Virus record (IMG/VR): IMGVR_UViG_3300007983_000014
Location: 1 to 30,252 of that record
Source: a virus
Lineage: Duplodnaviria; Caudoviricetes
Reading direction: 5' to 3' (one strand)
DNA: 30,252 nucleotides
Part shown: positions 2,342 to 11,758 of the stretch, piece by piece
Layout of the letters: each line of letters starts with the position of its first letter
Position numbering within the stretch: position 1 is the first letter of the stretch
Notes under the pieces: model-generated
Database searches by the model: none
Seen by the model: the letters and a program-made list of their open reading frames with translations, nothing else
What the model was told of the DNA's origin: nothing
Made by a program: the position numbers and the translations under genes

Positions 2342-3106
2342 ATGCCATTCGAAAACTTTTCAGCTCAAAACCCGCTTGGATACCTTGGGATCAATCCAGA
2401 CAAAAACCCTGGGATCATTGAAGCAGACAGGGCTCCTACAACAGCAGACCAGTCTGAGATTGGGACTATCTGGGTAGATAAGCCAAATGATGCGGCCTAT
2501 GTTCTCACGTCAGTTGTGGCGAACTCTGCAAACTGGGAGCTAGCAGGAAGTCCCACCGCGGCGGTCTCCTCTCTTGCGAGCGATAGCGGAAGCGCATCAC
2601 CAGCAGCTGGGATAATCACAATTGCAGGAGGGACGGGACTTGATAGCAGCGCATCAGGGTCCACGCTTACACTAGCAGTGAATGAATCCCTAGTGAATGT
2701 TGCAACTGTCAGCCTTACAAGCGCAGAGGTAAAAGCCCTTGCTGCGACACAGATCACGCTTGTTGCTGCACCGGGCGCGGGTAAGATGATTCAGTTCGAA
2801 AGCGCTTCATTTAAGCTAGTATACGGAGGAACGAATGCATTCACAGAAGCAGGCGACAACCTCTCTATCAAGTATACCGACGACAGCGGCGTAGCTGTTT
2901 CGCAAACAATTGAGACCACCGGCTTCATCGATCAGACAGCAAGCACATATACAAATGCTCAGCCCGTTATTGATGCTATCGTTGCTGCCTCTGCAGCTGA
3001 GAACGCACCGCTTGTTTTAGATAACCTAGGCAGCGAAATTGCAGGGAACGCAGCGAACGACAATACTCTTGAAGTTAGCGTGTCATATAGAGTTGTTGAA
3101 ATTTAA
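2342..3106 (+). CDS. Putative virion structural protein (tail/fibre-associated, beta-rich)
   Basis: A/S/T/G-rich; RAPTTAD..IGTIWVD and ITIAGGTG segments typical of phage fibre/base proteins; SD GGGGG upstream. Confidence 0.55.
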   Translation: MPFENFSAQNPLGYLGINPDKNPGIIEADRAPTTADQSEIGTIWVDKPNDAAYVLTSVVANSANWELAGSPTAAVSSLASDSGSASPAAGIITIAGGTGLDSSASGSTLTLAVNESLVNVATVSLTSAEVKALAATQITLVAAPGAGKMIQFESASFKLVYGGTNAFTEAGDNLSIKYTDDSGVAVSQTIETTGFIDQTASTYTNAQPVIDAIVAASAAENAPLVLDNLGSEIAGNAANDNTLEVSVSYRVVEI

Positions 3107-3441
3107 TGACAATAATACCCTCTCAAATTAGATATGTCTAGGTCTCGATGGACCCGGACGGTGTTATCAACGACCATCGAGCAGTTTCCTCAGTTGTAAA
3201 AAATGGCACGGGAGATTTCACCGTAAACCTTGTCGAGCCAATGATTACGGTTCACTATCATGTGTCTGTCATGGTTTACGATTCTTCTAATGATCCAATC
3301 CTTGTGAAGGTTGTTTCAAAAACAACCTCATCATTCAGGTTTCAGCTTAGAGGGGGAGAGGATTCAATCCTCGGTGTAACAGTCTGTAAAGCGGATCTAT
3401 ACGATCCCGACATAGGAATAAGCGTGTACGCATGCGCGTAG
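3106..3441 (+). pseudogene. Small tail-associated beta-rich protein interrupted by an in-frame TAG at 3139-3141 (track calls 3148..3441)
   Basis: ATG 3106 overlaps the upstream TAA and is in frame: MTIIPSQIRYV*VSMDPDGVINDHRAVSSVVKNGTGDFTVNL. This resembles the fibre-terminal pattern AWVNFDG...VSSV..NGTGDYTVNF with W replaced by a stop. Confidence 0.5.
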
Positions 3442-5618: not shown

Positions 5619-5643
5619 TGCTACTGCATGCTATGATTAACGC

Positions 5644-5718
5644 ACTCCTTCAGTCGTGTTGTTACATTTATCGTTGAAGTGAGTAGGGCCGATCGGGTTA
5701 TCCCGGTTGGCCTTTTTT
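5644..5718 (+). ncRNA. Candidate small RNA 1 (antisense-like to the early-operon leader at 9802-9828)
   Basis: Extended -10 TGcTATGAT (5629-5637), no clear -35. 5' hairpin, then terminator GGCCGATCGGG/CCCGGTTGGCC + T6 (5687-5718). The terminator could also serve the upstream gene. Confidence 0.6.
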
Positions 5719-5754
5719 GTTTACAGCTACGCAAGTTGGTGCCATGATGAGTTG

Positions 5755-5838
5755 ATCAGTAACCTGGGTAGTTGTTGACGCATCCCCATCAGTTCGCTGG
5801 TGGGCCGCCACTAAGTCAGTCTTAGTGGCTTTTTTTTT
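5755..5838 (+). ncRNA. Candidate small RNA 2
   Basis: TTTACA(5720)-17 nt-CATGAT(5743) with TG extension. UUCG hairpin 5785-5804. Terminator GCCACTAAG/CTTAGTGGC + T9 (5807-5838). Confidence 0.65.
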
Positions 5839-5850
5839 GTGATCAACTCA

Positions 5851-5961
5851 GAAAATGAGAAAGCCCAGTGCAGCAAACACTGAGCTTCTTAATAGCTGAT
5901 ACTTGGGATATCAGCGGACTGATACTTTGGATATCAGAGGACAGATACTTGACATGTTCTG
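5851..5961 (-). ncRNA. Candidate small RNA 3 with tandem hairpin repeats
   Basis: Minus-strand TTGACT(5995-5990)-17 nt-TATCTT(5972-5967). Repeated hairpins, then terminator-like stem 5861-5887 and a pyrimidine tail. Confidence 0.6.
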
Positions 5962-5963
5962 TC
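5896..5963. repeat. Three 23-nt-period repeats; two are CTGATA-N7-TATCAG palindromes
   Basis: CTGATACTTGGGATATCAG (5896-5914) and CTGATACTTTGGATATCAG (5919-5937). Core GATACTT at 5898, 5921 and 5944. Confidence 0.9.
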
Positions 5964-6069
5964 TTAAAGATATCCAAACGCACGTCTGAAGTCAAGCAGA
6001 AGCAATAAGCGTGCACGATATATGTCAGTTTTTTTTGAATTAAATGACGCGCTTGGATAGAGTGCGGTT

Positions 6070-6149
6070 AGATTTTCCGCTCTCCAAAGTGAAGTGGTTG
6101 ATTGGCCCTGGTGGAAGTTGCGTGAGCCTTGGCGGGCTCACGCTTTTTT
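6070..6149 (+). ncRNA. Candidate small RNA 4
   Basis: TTGAAT(6035)-17 nt-TAGAGT(6058). Terminator GCGTGAGCC/GGCTCACGC + T6 (6120-6149). No ORF inside. Confidence 0.6.
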
Positions 6150-6212: not shown

Positions 6213-6240
6213 ATGCAACATAACATGAGTTATCCGACTA
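6213..6240 (-). other. dif-like XerC/XerD recombination site (11-6-11)
   Basis: Minus strand TAGTCGGATAA-CTCATG-TTATGTTGCAT. The right arm is 9/11 identical to the canonical XerD arm TTATGTTAAAT, and the left arm ends in the ATAA core of XerC arms. Confidence 0.7.
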
Positions 6241-6373
6241 AAGTATTATTTTCAAGCGCTATCAACTTAAGTATTCTATTGGCTTCCAATCTAGTAACTT
6301 TTAGTTTACGCATTAAAAAAGAAATACTCAACTTGCCGAACTCAATTGCTAGTTTGCGTGCTTGCTCATCCAT
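6230..6373 (-). CDS. Stand-alone FtsK gamma-domain-like protein (47 aa)
   Basis: EQARKLAIEFGKLSISFLMRKLKVTRLEANRIL aligns without gaps to E. coli FtsK-gamma [33 protein letters not shown] (recalled sequence; 11/33 identical). ATG 6373 preferred over track start 6448. Confidence 0.65.
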   Translation of the reverse strand: MDEQARKLAIEFGKLSISFLMRKLKVTRLEANRILKLIALENNTLVG

Positions 6374-6431
6374 CGTATCCGAGCGCTTAAATTTTGTCAC
6401 TGTCCAGGTCACTCTTGTTATTGCTGAAGGC

Positions 6432-6466
6432 CTACCAATTGCTACCAATATCTACCAAATTGGTAG
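6432..6466. repeat. Phased heptamer array: CTACCAA x3 direct plus one inverted
   Basis: CTACCAA at 6432, 6442 and 6452 (10-bp period); TTGGTAG at 6460-6466. Confidence 0.85.
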
Positions 6467-7292: not shown

Positions 7293-8066
7293 TTACATGG
7301 CAATCTCAAATTGATCACCATCATGAATCACACGCGGGCGATTCTTTTGCCTATAGTTGTAAACGTCCACTAGCTGTATGACGTACTCACGAGCAGTGCT
7401 ACAGTATTTAATTGTATATGGGGCGTTTTCAATCTGCTTCAGCATTCGACCGTGGGAAATAAATGGGTTGGTGAAGATGTTCTTGCAGGCGCGATGAAAG
7501 GATAGCTGGTTGTAAATCTTGACGGGCTTGTAGTTTCGCGCTCTCATCGAATCCTTCAGGTCTAGAAAGCTTTTGATAGCACGGTTTTTTTCCTCTGAGA
7601 TCTCAAACTTGAAATCCCCGTTTTTAAATGCATGCATATAAGAAACATTTGCGCTATCAATCCAGTACAGCGCATTAACAATTTTCATATTATTGTCGTT
7701 ACAGTATGCCTTGAGAGCGATATAATCTTGCTTCCCATGAGAGACCCAATATTTCAAATAATCAGTTGTTTGCCAGGTCCTTCGTGAAGTGTTGAAGTCG
7801 ATCATCTTTTTCGGGGTGTATGCCTCATCGATGACATACCAGATTGTCTCCCCAAGATTCTTAGCAGCTGCAAGGCGATGCTGGCCATCAACAACTTCCA
7901 TCCTTGGATTAACAATGATGGGATTGATATGAAGATCATTGTAGTCCGCCATCATCATCTCAAGCCGTTTCACGTGTGACTTAGAGACATTCCTATTGTC
8001 ACCGCGCAACTTGAAAATGTCATACTTCCGCGTAGCTAGGATCTGTTTTGAAGTCTGTTCCATCAT
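7293..8066 (-). CDS. ParB/Srx-like N-terminal domain protein
   Basis: NRNVSKSHVKRL...NPIIVN....VVDGQHRLAAA motif. Confidence 0.8.
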   Translation of the reverse strand: MMEQTSKQILATRKYDIFKLRGDNRNVSKSHVKRLEMMMADYNDLHINPIIVNPRMEVVDGQHRLAAAKNLGETIWYVIDEAYTPKKMIDFNTSRRTWQTTDYLKYWVSHGKQDYIALKAYCNDNNMKIVNALYWIDSANVSYMHAFKNGDFKFEISEEKNRAIKSFLDLKDSMRARNYKPVKIYNQLSFHRACKNIFTNPFISHGRMLKQIENAPYTIKYCSTAREYVIQLVDVYNYRQKNRPRVIHDGDQFEIAM

Positions 8067-8074
8067 TCTTCCTG

Positions 8075-8932
8075 TTAGTCTGTAAGTGTTATTCTCCAGC
8101 TCTGAGAGCTTGAGGCTCTATAGTCGTCTAGATTGACGTGCATTAGCTCAGGCACCTTAGAGTAGTCGACAGAGCCCTTGCGGATCACCTTGCGGACTTT
8201 TGTCATTGCTCCCGCGCTGCTGTGTCCATCTGACAGTTTTATTAAATATTTGCGTGCCTCTAACTCCTCGTCTCGAGCCTTCTCCAGTTTCTGTTTTGCT
8301 GAGTAGAACCTTTGTTCAGCCATGAAAAACTCAAGGTCCTTCCTCTGAACATAGTCGCGGTCTGTGAGTTCTGGAGGGACTCCTTCAACCATGGATCTGT
8401 AAAACACTGATTCTCTGTTAATCATTTCCTTGATAAAGTTATCGTCCCTGCAGACTTCAACAAGATGGCGGCTTTGCTCAGAGAAAGACCAGTAATGTAA
8501 CATGTCCAATCCAGTGACTGCAAGTTGATGCTGCAATTGTGGGAAATATTTCTCAGGGACTTTCTTGCGCATAGCAATCGCGTGGTCTTTTTCGCCTGGG
8601 CACTTGATTTCAACAATCATCCTGTTTTTAAGATCGTACCCATCTAGGCTTGCCATCATCCAGGCGTGATGCGGAGAGAAGCAGACGCGGGGAGCCGCGT
8701 TATTGCCCGTGTACTCATTATAAGCTAGCAGCGCAGCCTCTTCTAGATCATGCCCTCTCTGCTGGTAGCGGTTCGTTTTCTCATCCGGAACAATCCCGCT
8801 CTTCAGTTGCCACAGCTCATATGGTGTCTTCCAAGGCGATACCCCCATAATTATGGGAGCATCGCTTGCGCCGATCTTGGTCTTTCGTAGCTCAAGCCAT
8901 TCAGGCGTGTTCTGCTTTACCATCGTTCTCAT
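8075..8932 (-). CDS. YqaJ-like viral recombinase exonuclease (lambda-exonuclease family)
   Basis: QNTPEWLELRKTKIGASDA, RGHDLEE, ASLDG, VEIKCP and YFPQLQHQLAV motifs. Confidence 0.92.
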   Translation of the reverse strand: MRTMVKQNTPEWLELRKTKIGASDAPIIMGVSPWKTPYELWQLKSGIVPDEKTNRYQQRGHDLEEAALLAYNEYTGNNAAPRVCFSPHHAWMMASLDGYDLKNRMIVEIKCPGEKDHAIAMRKKVPEKYFPQLQHQLAVTGLDMLHYWSFSEQSRHLVEVCRDDNFIKEMINRESVFYRSMVEGVPPELTDRDYVQRKDLEFFMAEQRFYSAKQKLEKARDEELEARKYLIKLSDGHSSAGAMTKVRKVIRKGSVDYSKVPELMHVNLDDYRASSSQSWRITLTD

Positions 8933-9494
8933 CCTTAATCAACTGTTCAATCCACTGAATTGCACCATCAAAGCGACTTGCTGGAATTGTTTCAAGAGAA
9001 CCCCCACAGCTCTCGAAAACAAATTTTCGAATACTTTCATGTTGCTTGATCAGGAATTCGATCTGCGCGACTTGATCAGGAGTGATATATTTAGAGGGCT
9101 TTTTGATATCTTTCGTCGCTGCGCTAGCTGCATTGCCGTCGTCGTCTTCAGCAGGGATACCAGCGATTGCCATAAGGCTATATCGCCGATAGTACGTGAT
9201 TGCGCTACCCAGCTTTTGAGGATCTGCAATGTCAGGGAGTACCATCTTGCTCTGAATCGACTCACCCGAGCAGTGTAGAAGAGTCGTCACTAGTGCTTGT
9301 CGGAACCCGTCCAACAGCTCCATTGTCTGAGTGACGGCTAAACCGTTTTCAGCAAAGGGAACGCGGATAGCTTCAAAGACGCTGGCTAGGTCCGCGTAGC
9401 TACTCTTGAAGAATGGGTTCTTCTTATCTTTCTTTGCCCCCTGCATCTTTGACTGTGCTTTACATAGTGCGATTGCTATATTGTCTGCTTCCAC
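8901..9494 (-). CDS. erf: ERF-family single-strand annealing protein
   Basis: KNPFFKSSYADL and GSAITYYRRYSL...EDDDGNAA motifs. GTG 9494 has a well-spaced GGAG SD (track start 9500). Confidence 0.9.
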   Translation of the reverse strand: MEADNIAIALCKAQSKMQGAKKDKKNPFFKSSYADLASVFEAIRVPFAENGLAVTQTMELLDGFRQALVTTLLHCSGESIQSKMVLPDIADPQKLGSAITYYRRYSLMAIAGIPAEDDDGNAASAATKDIKKPSKYITPDQVAQIEFLIKQHESIRKFVFESCGGSLETIPASRFDGAIQWIEQLIKDENDGKAEHA

Positions 9495-9503
9495 CTTCAA
9501 CTC

Positions 9504-9800
9504 CTATGACGTTACTTGTTTGAATTCTGCGTGAAGCACATCATGCACTGGCCTACATAGCGTGTCGATCTTGGCATGCTTCTTGGGAACATTAATTCCG
9601 TACTGGTCTGCTAAGTCTTCTAGCGCCATCTCAAGCACAGAGATGTTTCCAGTTGCGTATACCGCTTCAATCAAATCATAGATTGCGTCGTTGCACTTTC
9701 CAACGTGCGGAACCGAATCTATTGAGACATAACCCCTGTCAAAAAGGATGTCCTCGTTGTCTAGGTCGCTTAATTCGTATCTATCGTGAAATGCTGTCAT
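9504..9800 (-). CDS. Hypothetical acidic protein, first gene of the leftward early operon
   Basis: 98 aa; GGAGG SD at 9810-9806. Confidence 0.75.
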   Translation of the reverse strand: MTAFHDRYELSDLDNEDILFDRGYVSIDSVPHVGKCNDAIYDLIEAVYATGNISVLEMALEDLADQYGINVPKKHAKIDTLCRPVHDVLHAEFKQVTS

Positions 9801-9830
9801 TACTGCCTCCAGTTGCGTGTTGTTGCATAT

Positions 9831-9900
9831 ACAATAACACTTTAGTTATTTATATTGCAACGCATATGGTGTAGAAAAAAACACCAGCGTTGTGCATAAT
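9831..9900. promoter_or_regulatory. Divergent early promoters with a central palindrome (putative operator)
   Basis: Leftward TTGCAA(9860-9855)-18 nt-TATTGT(9836-9831). Rightward -10 CATAAT (9895-9900). Inverted repeat CAACGC..TGGTGT / ACACCA-GCGTTG at 9858-9892. Confidence 0.6.
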
Positions 9901-10568: not shown

Positions 10569-10658
10569 ATGGCAACCAAGGTGAAGATGAAGGACCTTGT
10601 CCCTGAAGAGTTCAAGAAATCAATCAATAAAGGCCAAGCCGGCTTGTTTGTGAATTAA
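10569..10658 (+). CDS. 29-aa small ORF not in the track (MATKVKMKDLVPEEFKKSINKGQAGLFVN)
   Basis: Its TAA overlaps the next ATG (TAATG at 10656-10660). Confidence 0.45.
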   Translation: MATKVKMKDLVPEEFKKSINKGQAGLFVN

Positions 10659-10885
10659 TGGAGGATACTATGTACTACGACAAATTAAGGGCGCTTCAGA
10701 CGCTAGTCAAAGAGATTGGCGGATTACAAGAGGGGTTCCGGTCTGATCTGTACGTTTTGACAGATACGGGAGACGTCAACAAGTCAGCTATGCGACGTTG
10801 TCGCAAGCGAACTACGGAACTGGTGCGGATGTATCGCGATTTCCGGCGCAATTCTATAGAGCTAGAGAAGACGCCTAAAGACTAG
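10658..10885 (+). CDS. Histone H1-like Hc1-family core-domain protein
   Basis: NKSAMRRCRKRTTELVRMYRDFRRNSIELEK matches the Hc1 pattern NKAAAQRVRTESIKLEKIAKVYRKESIKAEK (recalled). Alternative start ATG 10670 has a GGAGG SD. Confidence 0.65.
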   Translation: MEDTMYYDKLRALQTLVKEIGGLQEGFRSDLYVLTDTGDVNKSAMRRCRKRTTELVRMYRDFRRNSIELEKTPKD

Positions 10886-10936: not shown

Positions 10937-10996
10937 AAGCTAGAAACAAGAACCCCCGCTAAGTCTCTCGGCGGGGGTTCCAATAGACACGAATAT
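10937..10996 (+). repeat. 60-bp direct repeat, copy 1 (contains a GC-rich hairpin)
   Basis: 54/60 identical to 11464-11523. Confidence 0.95.
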
Positions 10997-11014: not shown

Positions 11015-11470
11015 ATGAAAAAATACATAACAATAGTAGCTATGCTATTATCAATGAGCGTATGTGCTTTTGATGGAATTGAACTAACCGACCATGTAAT
11101 TGAAAACAATGTAATTATTGTAAAAGAACCGGTGCAAATTTATTTGGATAGAATAGCCTCTAATGCGGAGGGCTATATGTATTCTGGCTTCTGCGAAAAA
11201 CTTGGCTTCCACATTTTCGTGGACGAGGGCAGGGATGAGGTTTCGTTGGCCATTGGATACAAAAGTTATTGGATCACTCATGAGAAGAAATGGATAGATG
11301 GGGTGTCAAAAAGCCTAGACTGGAGAAATGAGTTGCCGGAAAGCGTAGAGGAGCTTGAGGATAGGACTATATTGACCTTCTTGGGTAAGAGAAAGCCAAC
11401 CATAGAGGTGTTCTTCAAAGATGGTGAGCCACACCATGCGATTATTAGCACTCGATGCAGGCCAAGCTAG
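11015..11470 (+). CDS. Secreted/periplasmic hypothetical protein (151 aa), moron-like
   Basis: GGAG SD, then MKKYITIVAMLLSMSVCA (Sec signal peptide pattern). Track start 10922 reads through the repeat hairpin. Confidence 0.75.
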   Translation: MKKYITIVAMLLSMSVCAFDGIELTDHVIENNVIIVKEPVQIYLDRIASNAEGYMYSGFCEKLGFHIFVDEGRDEVSLAIGYKSYWITHEKKWIDGVSKSLDWRNELPESVEELEDRTILTFLGKRKPTIEVFFKDGEPHHAIISTRCRPS

Positions 11471-11523
11471 AAACAAGAACCCCCGCCAAGAGACTCAGCG
11501 GGGGTTCCAATAGACATGAATAT
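11464..11523 (+). repeat. 60-bp direct repeat, copy 2
   Basis: Matches 10937-10996 and contains the TAG stop of the enclosed gene. Confidence 0.95.
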
Positions 11524-11528: not shown

Positions 11529-11580
11529 ATCTGTAAGATATGACTTTGCCCGGACTTAAGCAAGGTGCTTAGATCAGGGC

Positions 11581-11660
11581 AAAAAGAAACCCCCAAAACG
11601 GTCCACAAATTCTTCCAAGGATTTGACCAAGATGGGGGCGCAAGTACCAAGAGGTTACTT
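11581..11660 (-). ncRNA. Candidate counter-transcribed antisense RNA of the replication-gene leader
   Basis: Minus-strand GTGAAT(11696-11691)-18 nt-TATTCT(11672-11667). Long stem closed by CCCCC/GGGGG (11590-11638), then TTTCTTTTT. Confidence 0.6.
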
Positions 11661-11758
11661 GAGCCTAGAATAGCCGATCGGCCTATTTTAATTCACGCTT
11701 AAGTAACTTCTTGATACTGTCGCTCCCACATAACAGCCCGAATGGGCAGGAGTCGATA
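11633..11758 (+). promoter_or_regulatory. Structured rep leader with mutually exclusive anti-anti-SD and anti-SD pairings
   Basis: 11633-11664 pairs with 11697-11728 (~30 bp including G-U pairs). Alternatively TGTCGCTCC (11718-11726) pairs with GGAGTCGATA (11749-11758). Confidence 0.65.

Follow-up and report, generated by a model that had tools for sequence, protein, structure and literature searches.

sRNA1, a predicted phage RNA, as a probable antisense regulator of the first leftward early gene

Results

The window analysed here is a whole virus record of 30,252 bp. It encodes a predicted small RNA, sRNA1, which is complementary to the predicted 5′ untranslated region (UTR) and Shine-Dalgarno (SD) sequence of L1, the first leftward early gene (Table 1). 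We consider, with moderate confidence, that sRNA1 is a trans-acting antisense RNA that docks on the early-left mRNA and blocks the translation of L1. Antisense control of the L1 start appears likely mainly because related phages use a covarying antisense RNA on the same leader box.

Table 1 Features of the RNA array and the early region (positions in the window).
Feature	Position	Strand	Basis
Predicted extended -10 promoter of sRNA1 (TGn-TATGAT), no -35 seen	5629..5637	+	Sequence; not listed by the consensus scan
sRNA1, predicted 76-nt RNA: 5′ hairpin and intrinsic terminator	5644..5719	+	Fold; terminator listed by program
Antisense segment of sRNA1: anti-SD block and CGTGTTGTT seed	5644..5663	+	Duplex computation
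sRNA1 terminator hairpin	5685..5718	+	Terminator scan; comparison with relatives
sRNA2, predicted promoter-hairpin-terminator unit	5755..5838	+	Scan, fold
Third structured non-coding unit, U-tract at end	5845..6037	+	Fold z -4.75, 0/200 shuffles as good
sRNA4, predicted unit	6070..6149	+	Fold, match to L1 leader
dif-like site, likely XerCD attachment site, adjoining the RNA array	6213..6240	-	Counterparts in relatives
Downstream early-left genes: ERF (8901-9500), YqaJ exonuclease (8075-8932), ParB-like (7293-8066)	7293..9500	-	
L1, first gene of the leftward operon; product acidic and helical with a net charge of -10, family uncharacterised	9504..9800	-	
Target: predicted 5′ UTR and SD of L1, with family ACACG box	9802..9824	-	Duplex computation, leader comparison
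Palindrome spanning the start site and -10 of the leftward promoter; may serve as a protein operator	9817..9840	.	Scan
Predicted leftward promoter (TTGCAA, 18 nt, TGn-TATTGT)	9831..9860	-	By eye; not listed by the consensus scan
Cro/YdaS-type HTH, sole HTH_3 match in the genome	9926..10138	+	Profile search

Complementarity between sRNA1 and the L1 leader

The complementarity had been noted in a first-pass annotation of the window. Both stretches read as quoted there, and a second assembly, possibly from the same sample, showed zero differences across sRNA1 or the leader site. The duplex computation reproduced the proposed blocks of 3, 8, and 9 bp: in the best duplex, nt 1–20 of sRNA1 (5644–5663) were paired with nt 1–23 of the mRNA (9824–9802) through 20 bp, one of which was G-U. 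As had been claimed, the duplex covers the GGAGG SD and reaches the predicted transcription start at 9824; indeed, its ends coincide with both predicted transcription starts.

When sRNA1 was ranked by energy against the 42 start regions of its own genome, L1 was the first, with a best-of-42 duplex of -26.8 compared with -18.7 for shuffled sRNA. The advantage over shuffled background was clear in this comparison (0 of 40 shuffles were as good) but not when accessibility was included, where 25 of 200 shuffles equalled sRNA1 (4 of 200 by hybridisation only). The L1 leader was also the best of 69 family leaders for sRNA1 (z -5.6), and sRNA1 was second of 277 terminator units scored against the start regions of the same locus. 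The full cofold of sRNA1 and the L1 leader was more stable than the two monomers by 11.8 kcal/mol. When 12,061 windows across the genome were scanned, a single coding site (around 28521) was slightly better (-29.6 versus -28.5). Taken together, the seed pairing of sRNA1 across the ribosome-binding site of L1 is imperfect and exceeds chance, though less clearly once accessibility is counted. A pattern search for sRNA1 and the leader returned 23 viral contigs, all unrelated or chance matches.

The computed fold of sRNA1 had an energy of -34 kcal/mol (z -6.5), and its 5′ hairpin alone had a z of -2.85. The 9-bp block had been placed mostly in the hairpin loop; this was not borne out by the accessibility computation, in which only nt 17–20, four of the nine seed bases, were mostly unpaired. 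The opening cost was 1.0 kcal/mol for nt 15–20 and 3.6 kcal/mol for the entire 9-mer. In the terminator, the 5′ arm shares 11 identical nt with the family RNA of the related locus L288, and the loop differs from the pairing loop of that family (see below).

sRNA1 is the first unit of a predicted array. No significant target was found for sRNA2, and its pairing with the Hc1-like gene, an IhtA-like idea, was rejected, 25 of 40 shuffles being equally good. sRNA2 is flanked by an 11-bp inverted pair (5748–5758 and 5840–5850), and the following 193-nt unit (5845–6037) contains two tandem 23-nt palindromic repeats at 5896–5941. A perfect 9-nt match to the L1 leader occurs in sRNA4 at 6116–6124, in the family seed position and partly buried in the terminator stem. 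A search started from the gene preceding the array yielded one phage, with a capsid of another family, in which no array was found behind that gene. In L340, also of another capsid family, three consecutive plus-strand terminator units (3010–3340) end the leftward operon, one of them matching the start region of the gene at 2047 over 8 nt; these units are possibly a second sRNA array.

L1 and the genome that carries it

Profile searches identified a P22-like portal, a terminase, and a major head protein in the window. The early region is lambdoid-like, with leftward L1, ERF, YqaJ, and ParB-like genes and rightward genes for a Cro-type HTH protein, an Hc1-like protein, O-like replication proteins, and RusA. 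CheckV gave a completeness of 80%. Both contig ends lie inside one gene, the halves of which correspond to positions 1–167 and 192–419 of a 422-position family profile; because the ends split one gene, the genome is considered complete or nearly so. Six-frame searches of this near-complete genome detected no S24 peptidase (CI) and no integrase, and the Cro-type gene was the only HTH_3 match.

L1 encodes 98 aa; proteins of its family are acidic, have about 100 aa, and are usually encoded first in the leftward operon. Its predicted leader is 24 nt, and the leftward promoter layout is identical in L172 and L173. Searches of Pfam, PHROGs, PDB sequences, Atlas, and folds gave nothing clear on its function; the helical model (pLDDT 79) had a best fold match of Z 5.8 (rmsd 6.6 over 66 residues), which is generic helical. 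In L267 and L304, the L1 domain is apparently fused to the following recombinase-like protein (317–332 aa), and this arrangement hints at a functional link of L1 to recombination. An 11-nt copy of the leader box lies within the L1 coding sequence (around 9649–9659, minus strand) where the conserved YxTG motif is encoded; this copy may be chance or may offer another site for pairing. The terminator scan listed no terminator-like site within L1.

Counterparts of the dif-like site, so named for its dif-type layout, were found in 14 of 80 YqaJ loci, with conserved arms and a variable 6-bp centre. Its sequence suggests that the virus is a temperate phage using the host XerCD. The site overlaps the end of a 72-aa ORF (6230–6448, minus strand) with a weak FtsK-gamma match, and the leftward operon of L175 contains an FtsK-gamma-like ORF with a still weaker match. 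Judging from the sequence, such an ORF may be a phage-encoded XerD activator for integrase-free integration.

The Hc1 (chlamydial histone-like) homologue at 10658–10885 scored above the Pfam cut-off, and no homologue was found in the relatives that were fetched; the Hc1 family also matched 1 of 14 control genomes. The distribution of Hc1 points to Chlamydiota, and the gene suggests a host of this phylum. Two 60-nt direct repeats (10937–10996 and 11464–11523; 90% identical), each a GC-rich hairpin, bracket the gene at 11015–11470 in the fashion of cassette boundaries, and two long inverted repeats with arms of 18 and 32 nt lie just upstream of the O-like replication gene (11545–11728). The phage family is large, with 705 capsid homologues and many records of 35–39 kb; in the capsid, the closest relatives are 78–79% identical to the window.

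A predicted antisense RNA family in related phages

Relatives were examined at 80 viral and 79 metagenome YqaJ loci and in 33 capsid-anchored records; labels such as L173, L221, and L288 denote loci of relatives, and L1 denotes the gene. Single-protein locus scans with the ParB-like protein and YqaJ returned zero relatives. A total of 58 distinct L1 leaders were collected, and a candidate terminator unit was detected in 39 of the 58 loci. In many relatives the interval separating cro from the replication gene contains a small RNA unit, which has the strand of the leftward mRNA and consists of a 5′ hairpin, a seed, and a terminator in this order. Pairing is predicted between the seed and the leader bases immediately 5′ of the L1 SD, and between the terminator loop and the SD-AUG spacer.

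Cognate seed duplexes averaged -15.8 kcal/mol, compared with -11.6 kcal/mol for non-cognate ones, in the 39 loci (0 of 100,000 permutations, which ignore relatedness). Loop and seed each outscored non-cognate pairs (0 of 20,000 permutations, again blind to relatedness), also when each was assessed on the subset that the other site had selected. Seeds of 9 bp or more together with loops of 6 bp or more were present in 12 of 39 cognate pairs versus 43 of 1,482 non-cognate pairs. Furthermore, three loop/target types (GAACCA, GAGCCA, and GCACCA) track three clades of the YqaJ tree, which comprised 27 of the 36 intended rows (the nine dropped include four non-matching homologues), indicating at least two compensatory changes. 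An internal G-U pair extends 11 of 22 seeds, whereas A-C does so in 3, although several of the G-U cases share one event; this fits the strand given by the U-tract. The leader box recurs before the second leftward gene as the best or second-best site in about 10 loci.

A covariance model, R1, built from 18 members matched five held-out L1 loci. Two of them, L221 (11-bp seed with the TCGTGTTGT core, as in sRNA1) and L280, pair fully with their own leaders. In L281 the loop matches the leader and the seed, by eye, matches an upstream gene; L286 is weak with 7 bp only, and L191 has no match. A pattern scan yielded five new homologues among 59 matches. In four of these no matching box was found in the first leftward start region, and the fifth lacked the region. 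The seed is self-folded in these four, and the family RNA can thus persist without an obvious target of its own.

Searches of Rfam gave one spurious snoRNA match (E 0.66) in the window and none in seven relatives. In the literature searched, which did not extend to most subscription papers, no account of the family RNA or of tailed chlamydial phages was found. Plus-strand "seeds" in L239, L214, L232, and L242 were discarded, as they are start regions of leftward genes that are present in duplicate and were seen from the reverse strand. A short hairpin with a GGAAG loop, reminiscent of a boxB-type site, precedes the first leftward gene in L175, L189, L195, L222, L345, L356, and L373, including several phages whose family RNA has no leader match. 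In L173, L175, and L189, the reverse strand of the 3′ end of the last late gene carries an SD, an ATG, and a frame of 6–10 codons before the late terminator.

sRNA1 as a possible replacement of the family RNA

The family box is present in the L1 leader of the window, for which sRNA1 is the best antisense match. The window YqaJ forms a long branch in a supported clade (96/98), the other 11 rows of which all have the family RNA. No family RNA unit was found between cro and rep of the window. sRNA1 lies outside this family position, and its loop does not pair with the SD-AUG spacer; its 9-bp block nevertheless pairs, as a family seed does, with the ACACG box and has the same core as held-out L221. 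sRNA4 (14.2 bits, E 0.23) and sRNA1 (13.8 bits, E 0.29) were the two best matches to model R1 in the window, scores to which any terminator contributes. The covariation concerns the family RNA and the leader box; no relative carrying sRNA1 itself was found among those examined.

The similarity between the two sites is wider than the match of sRNA1 to the 5′ UTR and SD that had been described. It extends beyond both predicted starts (5628–5670 versus 9791–9831), and 12 of 16 bases upstream of the sRNA1 start are identical to the L1 region (P ~1e-4 given the register). The start codon of the copied L1 region reads ATC, and its reverse strand gives the -10 hexamer. The sole substitution inside the duplex is G-U compatible, whereas the differences in the flanks are not. 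sRNA1 is likely, from its sequence, to have originated as a copy of the 5′ end of L1. The simplest history would be a duplicated L1 start region that was later transcribed from the other strand, and sRNA1 would have taken over from the lost family RNA.

The same similarity could be read in another way, namely that the L1 start region was copied, or some leftward start region reused, and the product has decayed beside the late-operon terminator into a non-functional relic, "sRNA1" being late 3′ UTR. The similarity upstream of the predicted sRNA1 start is in line with this, and in L239, L214, L232, and L242 the leader box occurs again behind hairpins, ahead of further leftward genes. The A/C-rich box with an SD is found in unrelated phages as well. 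In addition, the sRNA1 promoter is weak, and since it has no -35, the RNA may be only the 3′ end of a late mRNA. However, the copied SD has no reading frame behind it, the segment forms the hairpin of its own described above, and the differences between the predicted starts are limited to G-U and indel changes. Moreover, the family RNA is lost from the window yet the box is kept: of the 20 leaders with the box, 17 have the family RNA, compared with 4 of 31 leaders without it, a contrast that is partly circular. We regard a relic as unlikely.

Proposed control of the early-left operon

The first-pass annotation had proposed translational repression in trans of the operon, doing the job of a repressor protein. 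Repression in trans is likely at the L1 start, the same box being the covarying target in relatives. Only L1 would be a direct target; ERF, YqaJ, and the ParB-like gene would be affected only by way of coupling or polarity. As for the repressor, the searches for CI and integrase were indeed negative, but the window encodes a Cro-type HTH protein and has a palindrome spanning the leftward promoter; a replacement of a repressor by sRNA1 is possible.

A stronger form of this idea is that constitutive RNAs of the array serve as the main immunity system, silencing early-left translation of the prophage and of superinfecting relatives instead of CI. In its favour, besides the missing S24/CI and integrase genes, the array adjoins the dif-like site, no leftward HTH was found among 86 control-region proteins from 12 RNA-bearing relatives, and the four family homologues that keep a seed without a match in their own first leader would fit foreign targets; RNA-based immunity has a precedent in P4 (PMC4825925). 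A leftward block, however, would leave the rightward cro and replication genes unsilenced, and the Cro-type protein and its possible operator exist. sRNA1 is also far more specific for its own leader than for those of 68 relatives, and sRNA2 has no significant target. Such a role is quite improbable.

It is very improbable that, instead of forming an antisense pair, the shared letters serve the Cro-type protein as a DNA half-site or are recognised by some protein as an RNA box in the same sense: GTGTTGTT is one arm of the 9817–9840 palindrome with 13 of 15 bases matched at 5656–5670, and the family motif precedes the first leftward gene just after cro, as lambda nut sites do, but the sRNA1 copy is non-palindromic, the two boxes of relatives are in opposite order with the U-tract on the antisense strand, their differences favour G-U over A-C (11 versus 3), and comparable palindromes occur in only 4 of 12 relatives.

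Comparison with known antisense RNAs

The c4 RNA has two separate pairing sites and is cut from the operon that it controls. It is described as a phage-encoded trans-acting antisense RNA of P1 repressing antirepressor synthesis, and in a reference title as a processed 77-nt RNA (PMC8546580); its Rfam number is given as RF01695 (PMC2864571). sRNA1 resembles c4 of P1/P7 as a trans antisense RNA on an early gene, and the RNA of the relatives likewise has two pairing sites. In contrast to c4, sRNA1 has a predicted promoter and terminator of its own and lies 4 kb from its target on the opposite strand, an arrangement at odds with c4-type processing from the regulated transcript. L1 is not a known antirepressor either; in comparison with icd-ant, it showed no PHROG, Pfam, PDB-sequence, or fold match. 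No match to RF01695 was obtained in the window up to E 1 or, at the gathering score, in the loci of seven relatives.

The CA RNA of N15 is grouped with the CI RNA of P4. The latter is reported to control early genes by pairing with the leader sequences seqA and seqC (PMC4825925); it is processed from the controlled transcript and causes premature termination. Early-gene control by an RNA that pairs with a leader is common to both systems. However, the pairing of sRNA1 covers the SD, for which a block of translation is predicted, and its gene is unlinked: CI RNA lies inside the leader that it controls, between seqA and seqC, whereas the gene of sRNA1 is far from the L1 leader, which has a predicted length of 24 nt.

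OOP and sar act in cis: they are encoded opposite their targets and are fully complementary to them. These RNAs of lambda and P22 are described as small antisense RNAs tuning early regulators (PMC12197685). The RNA of the relatives has the position and orientation of OOP, between cro and the replication gene, but both this RNA and sRNA1 pair imperfectly with a distant leader; the 20-bp imperfect duplex of sRNA1 with a separate locus is not that of a cis-antisense RNA. Terminator loops of SdsR, RseX, and ArrS regulate fepA, "likely without base-pairing" in the words of the source (PMC11979758). A regulatory terminator loop is shared with the relatives' RNA, whereas the loop of the latter covaries with the SD-AUG spacer and sRNA1 has no such loop match. 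By analogy, sRNA1 would work like P1 c4 or P4 CI RNA while being a member of neither family.

Discussion

In the mechanism that we favour, an exposed UGUU loop of sRNA1 would dock on the single-stranded 5′ end of the leftward early mRNA. The sRNA1 hairpin would then open and the duplex zip over the L1 SD, by which translation of L1 would be blocked. Overlapping genes would hand part of the effect to ERF and YqaJ, and the recombination genes would probably be damped. sRNA1 would most likely act as a second, post-transcriptional layer beside the Cro-type protein. Expression from its own predicted promoter would fit prophage maintenance, and release from the late transcript would fit late shut-off.

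A wider picture can be offered tentatively, and as a whole it remains doubtful: temperate tailed phages that form a large uncultured family, and whose hosts are probably environmental Chlamydiota, would lack CI and keep their early-left operon under a hitherto undescribed two-site antisense RNA acting through seed and terminator loop. In the phage of the window, this RNA would have been replaced by a target-copy RNA in an array beside the attachment site, serving as RNA-based immunity.

A few enterobacterial phages are known to control early genes with RNAs that act in trans, and the present phage family has no cultured member among the records searched. The family RNA is new to Rfam; it shows compensatory changes at the level of clades, and base pairing is predicted for its terminator loop. 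The window would offer a rare view of a regulator whose place has been taken by a new sRNA derived from a duplicated copy of its target. Such an origin would make the emergence of trans-acting sRNAs directly testable with natural cognate and non-cognate pairs.
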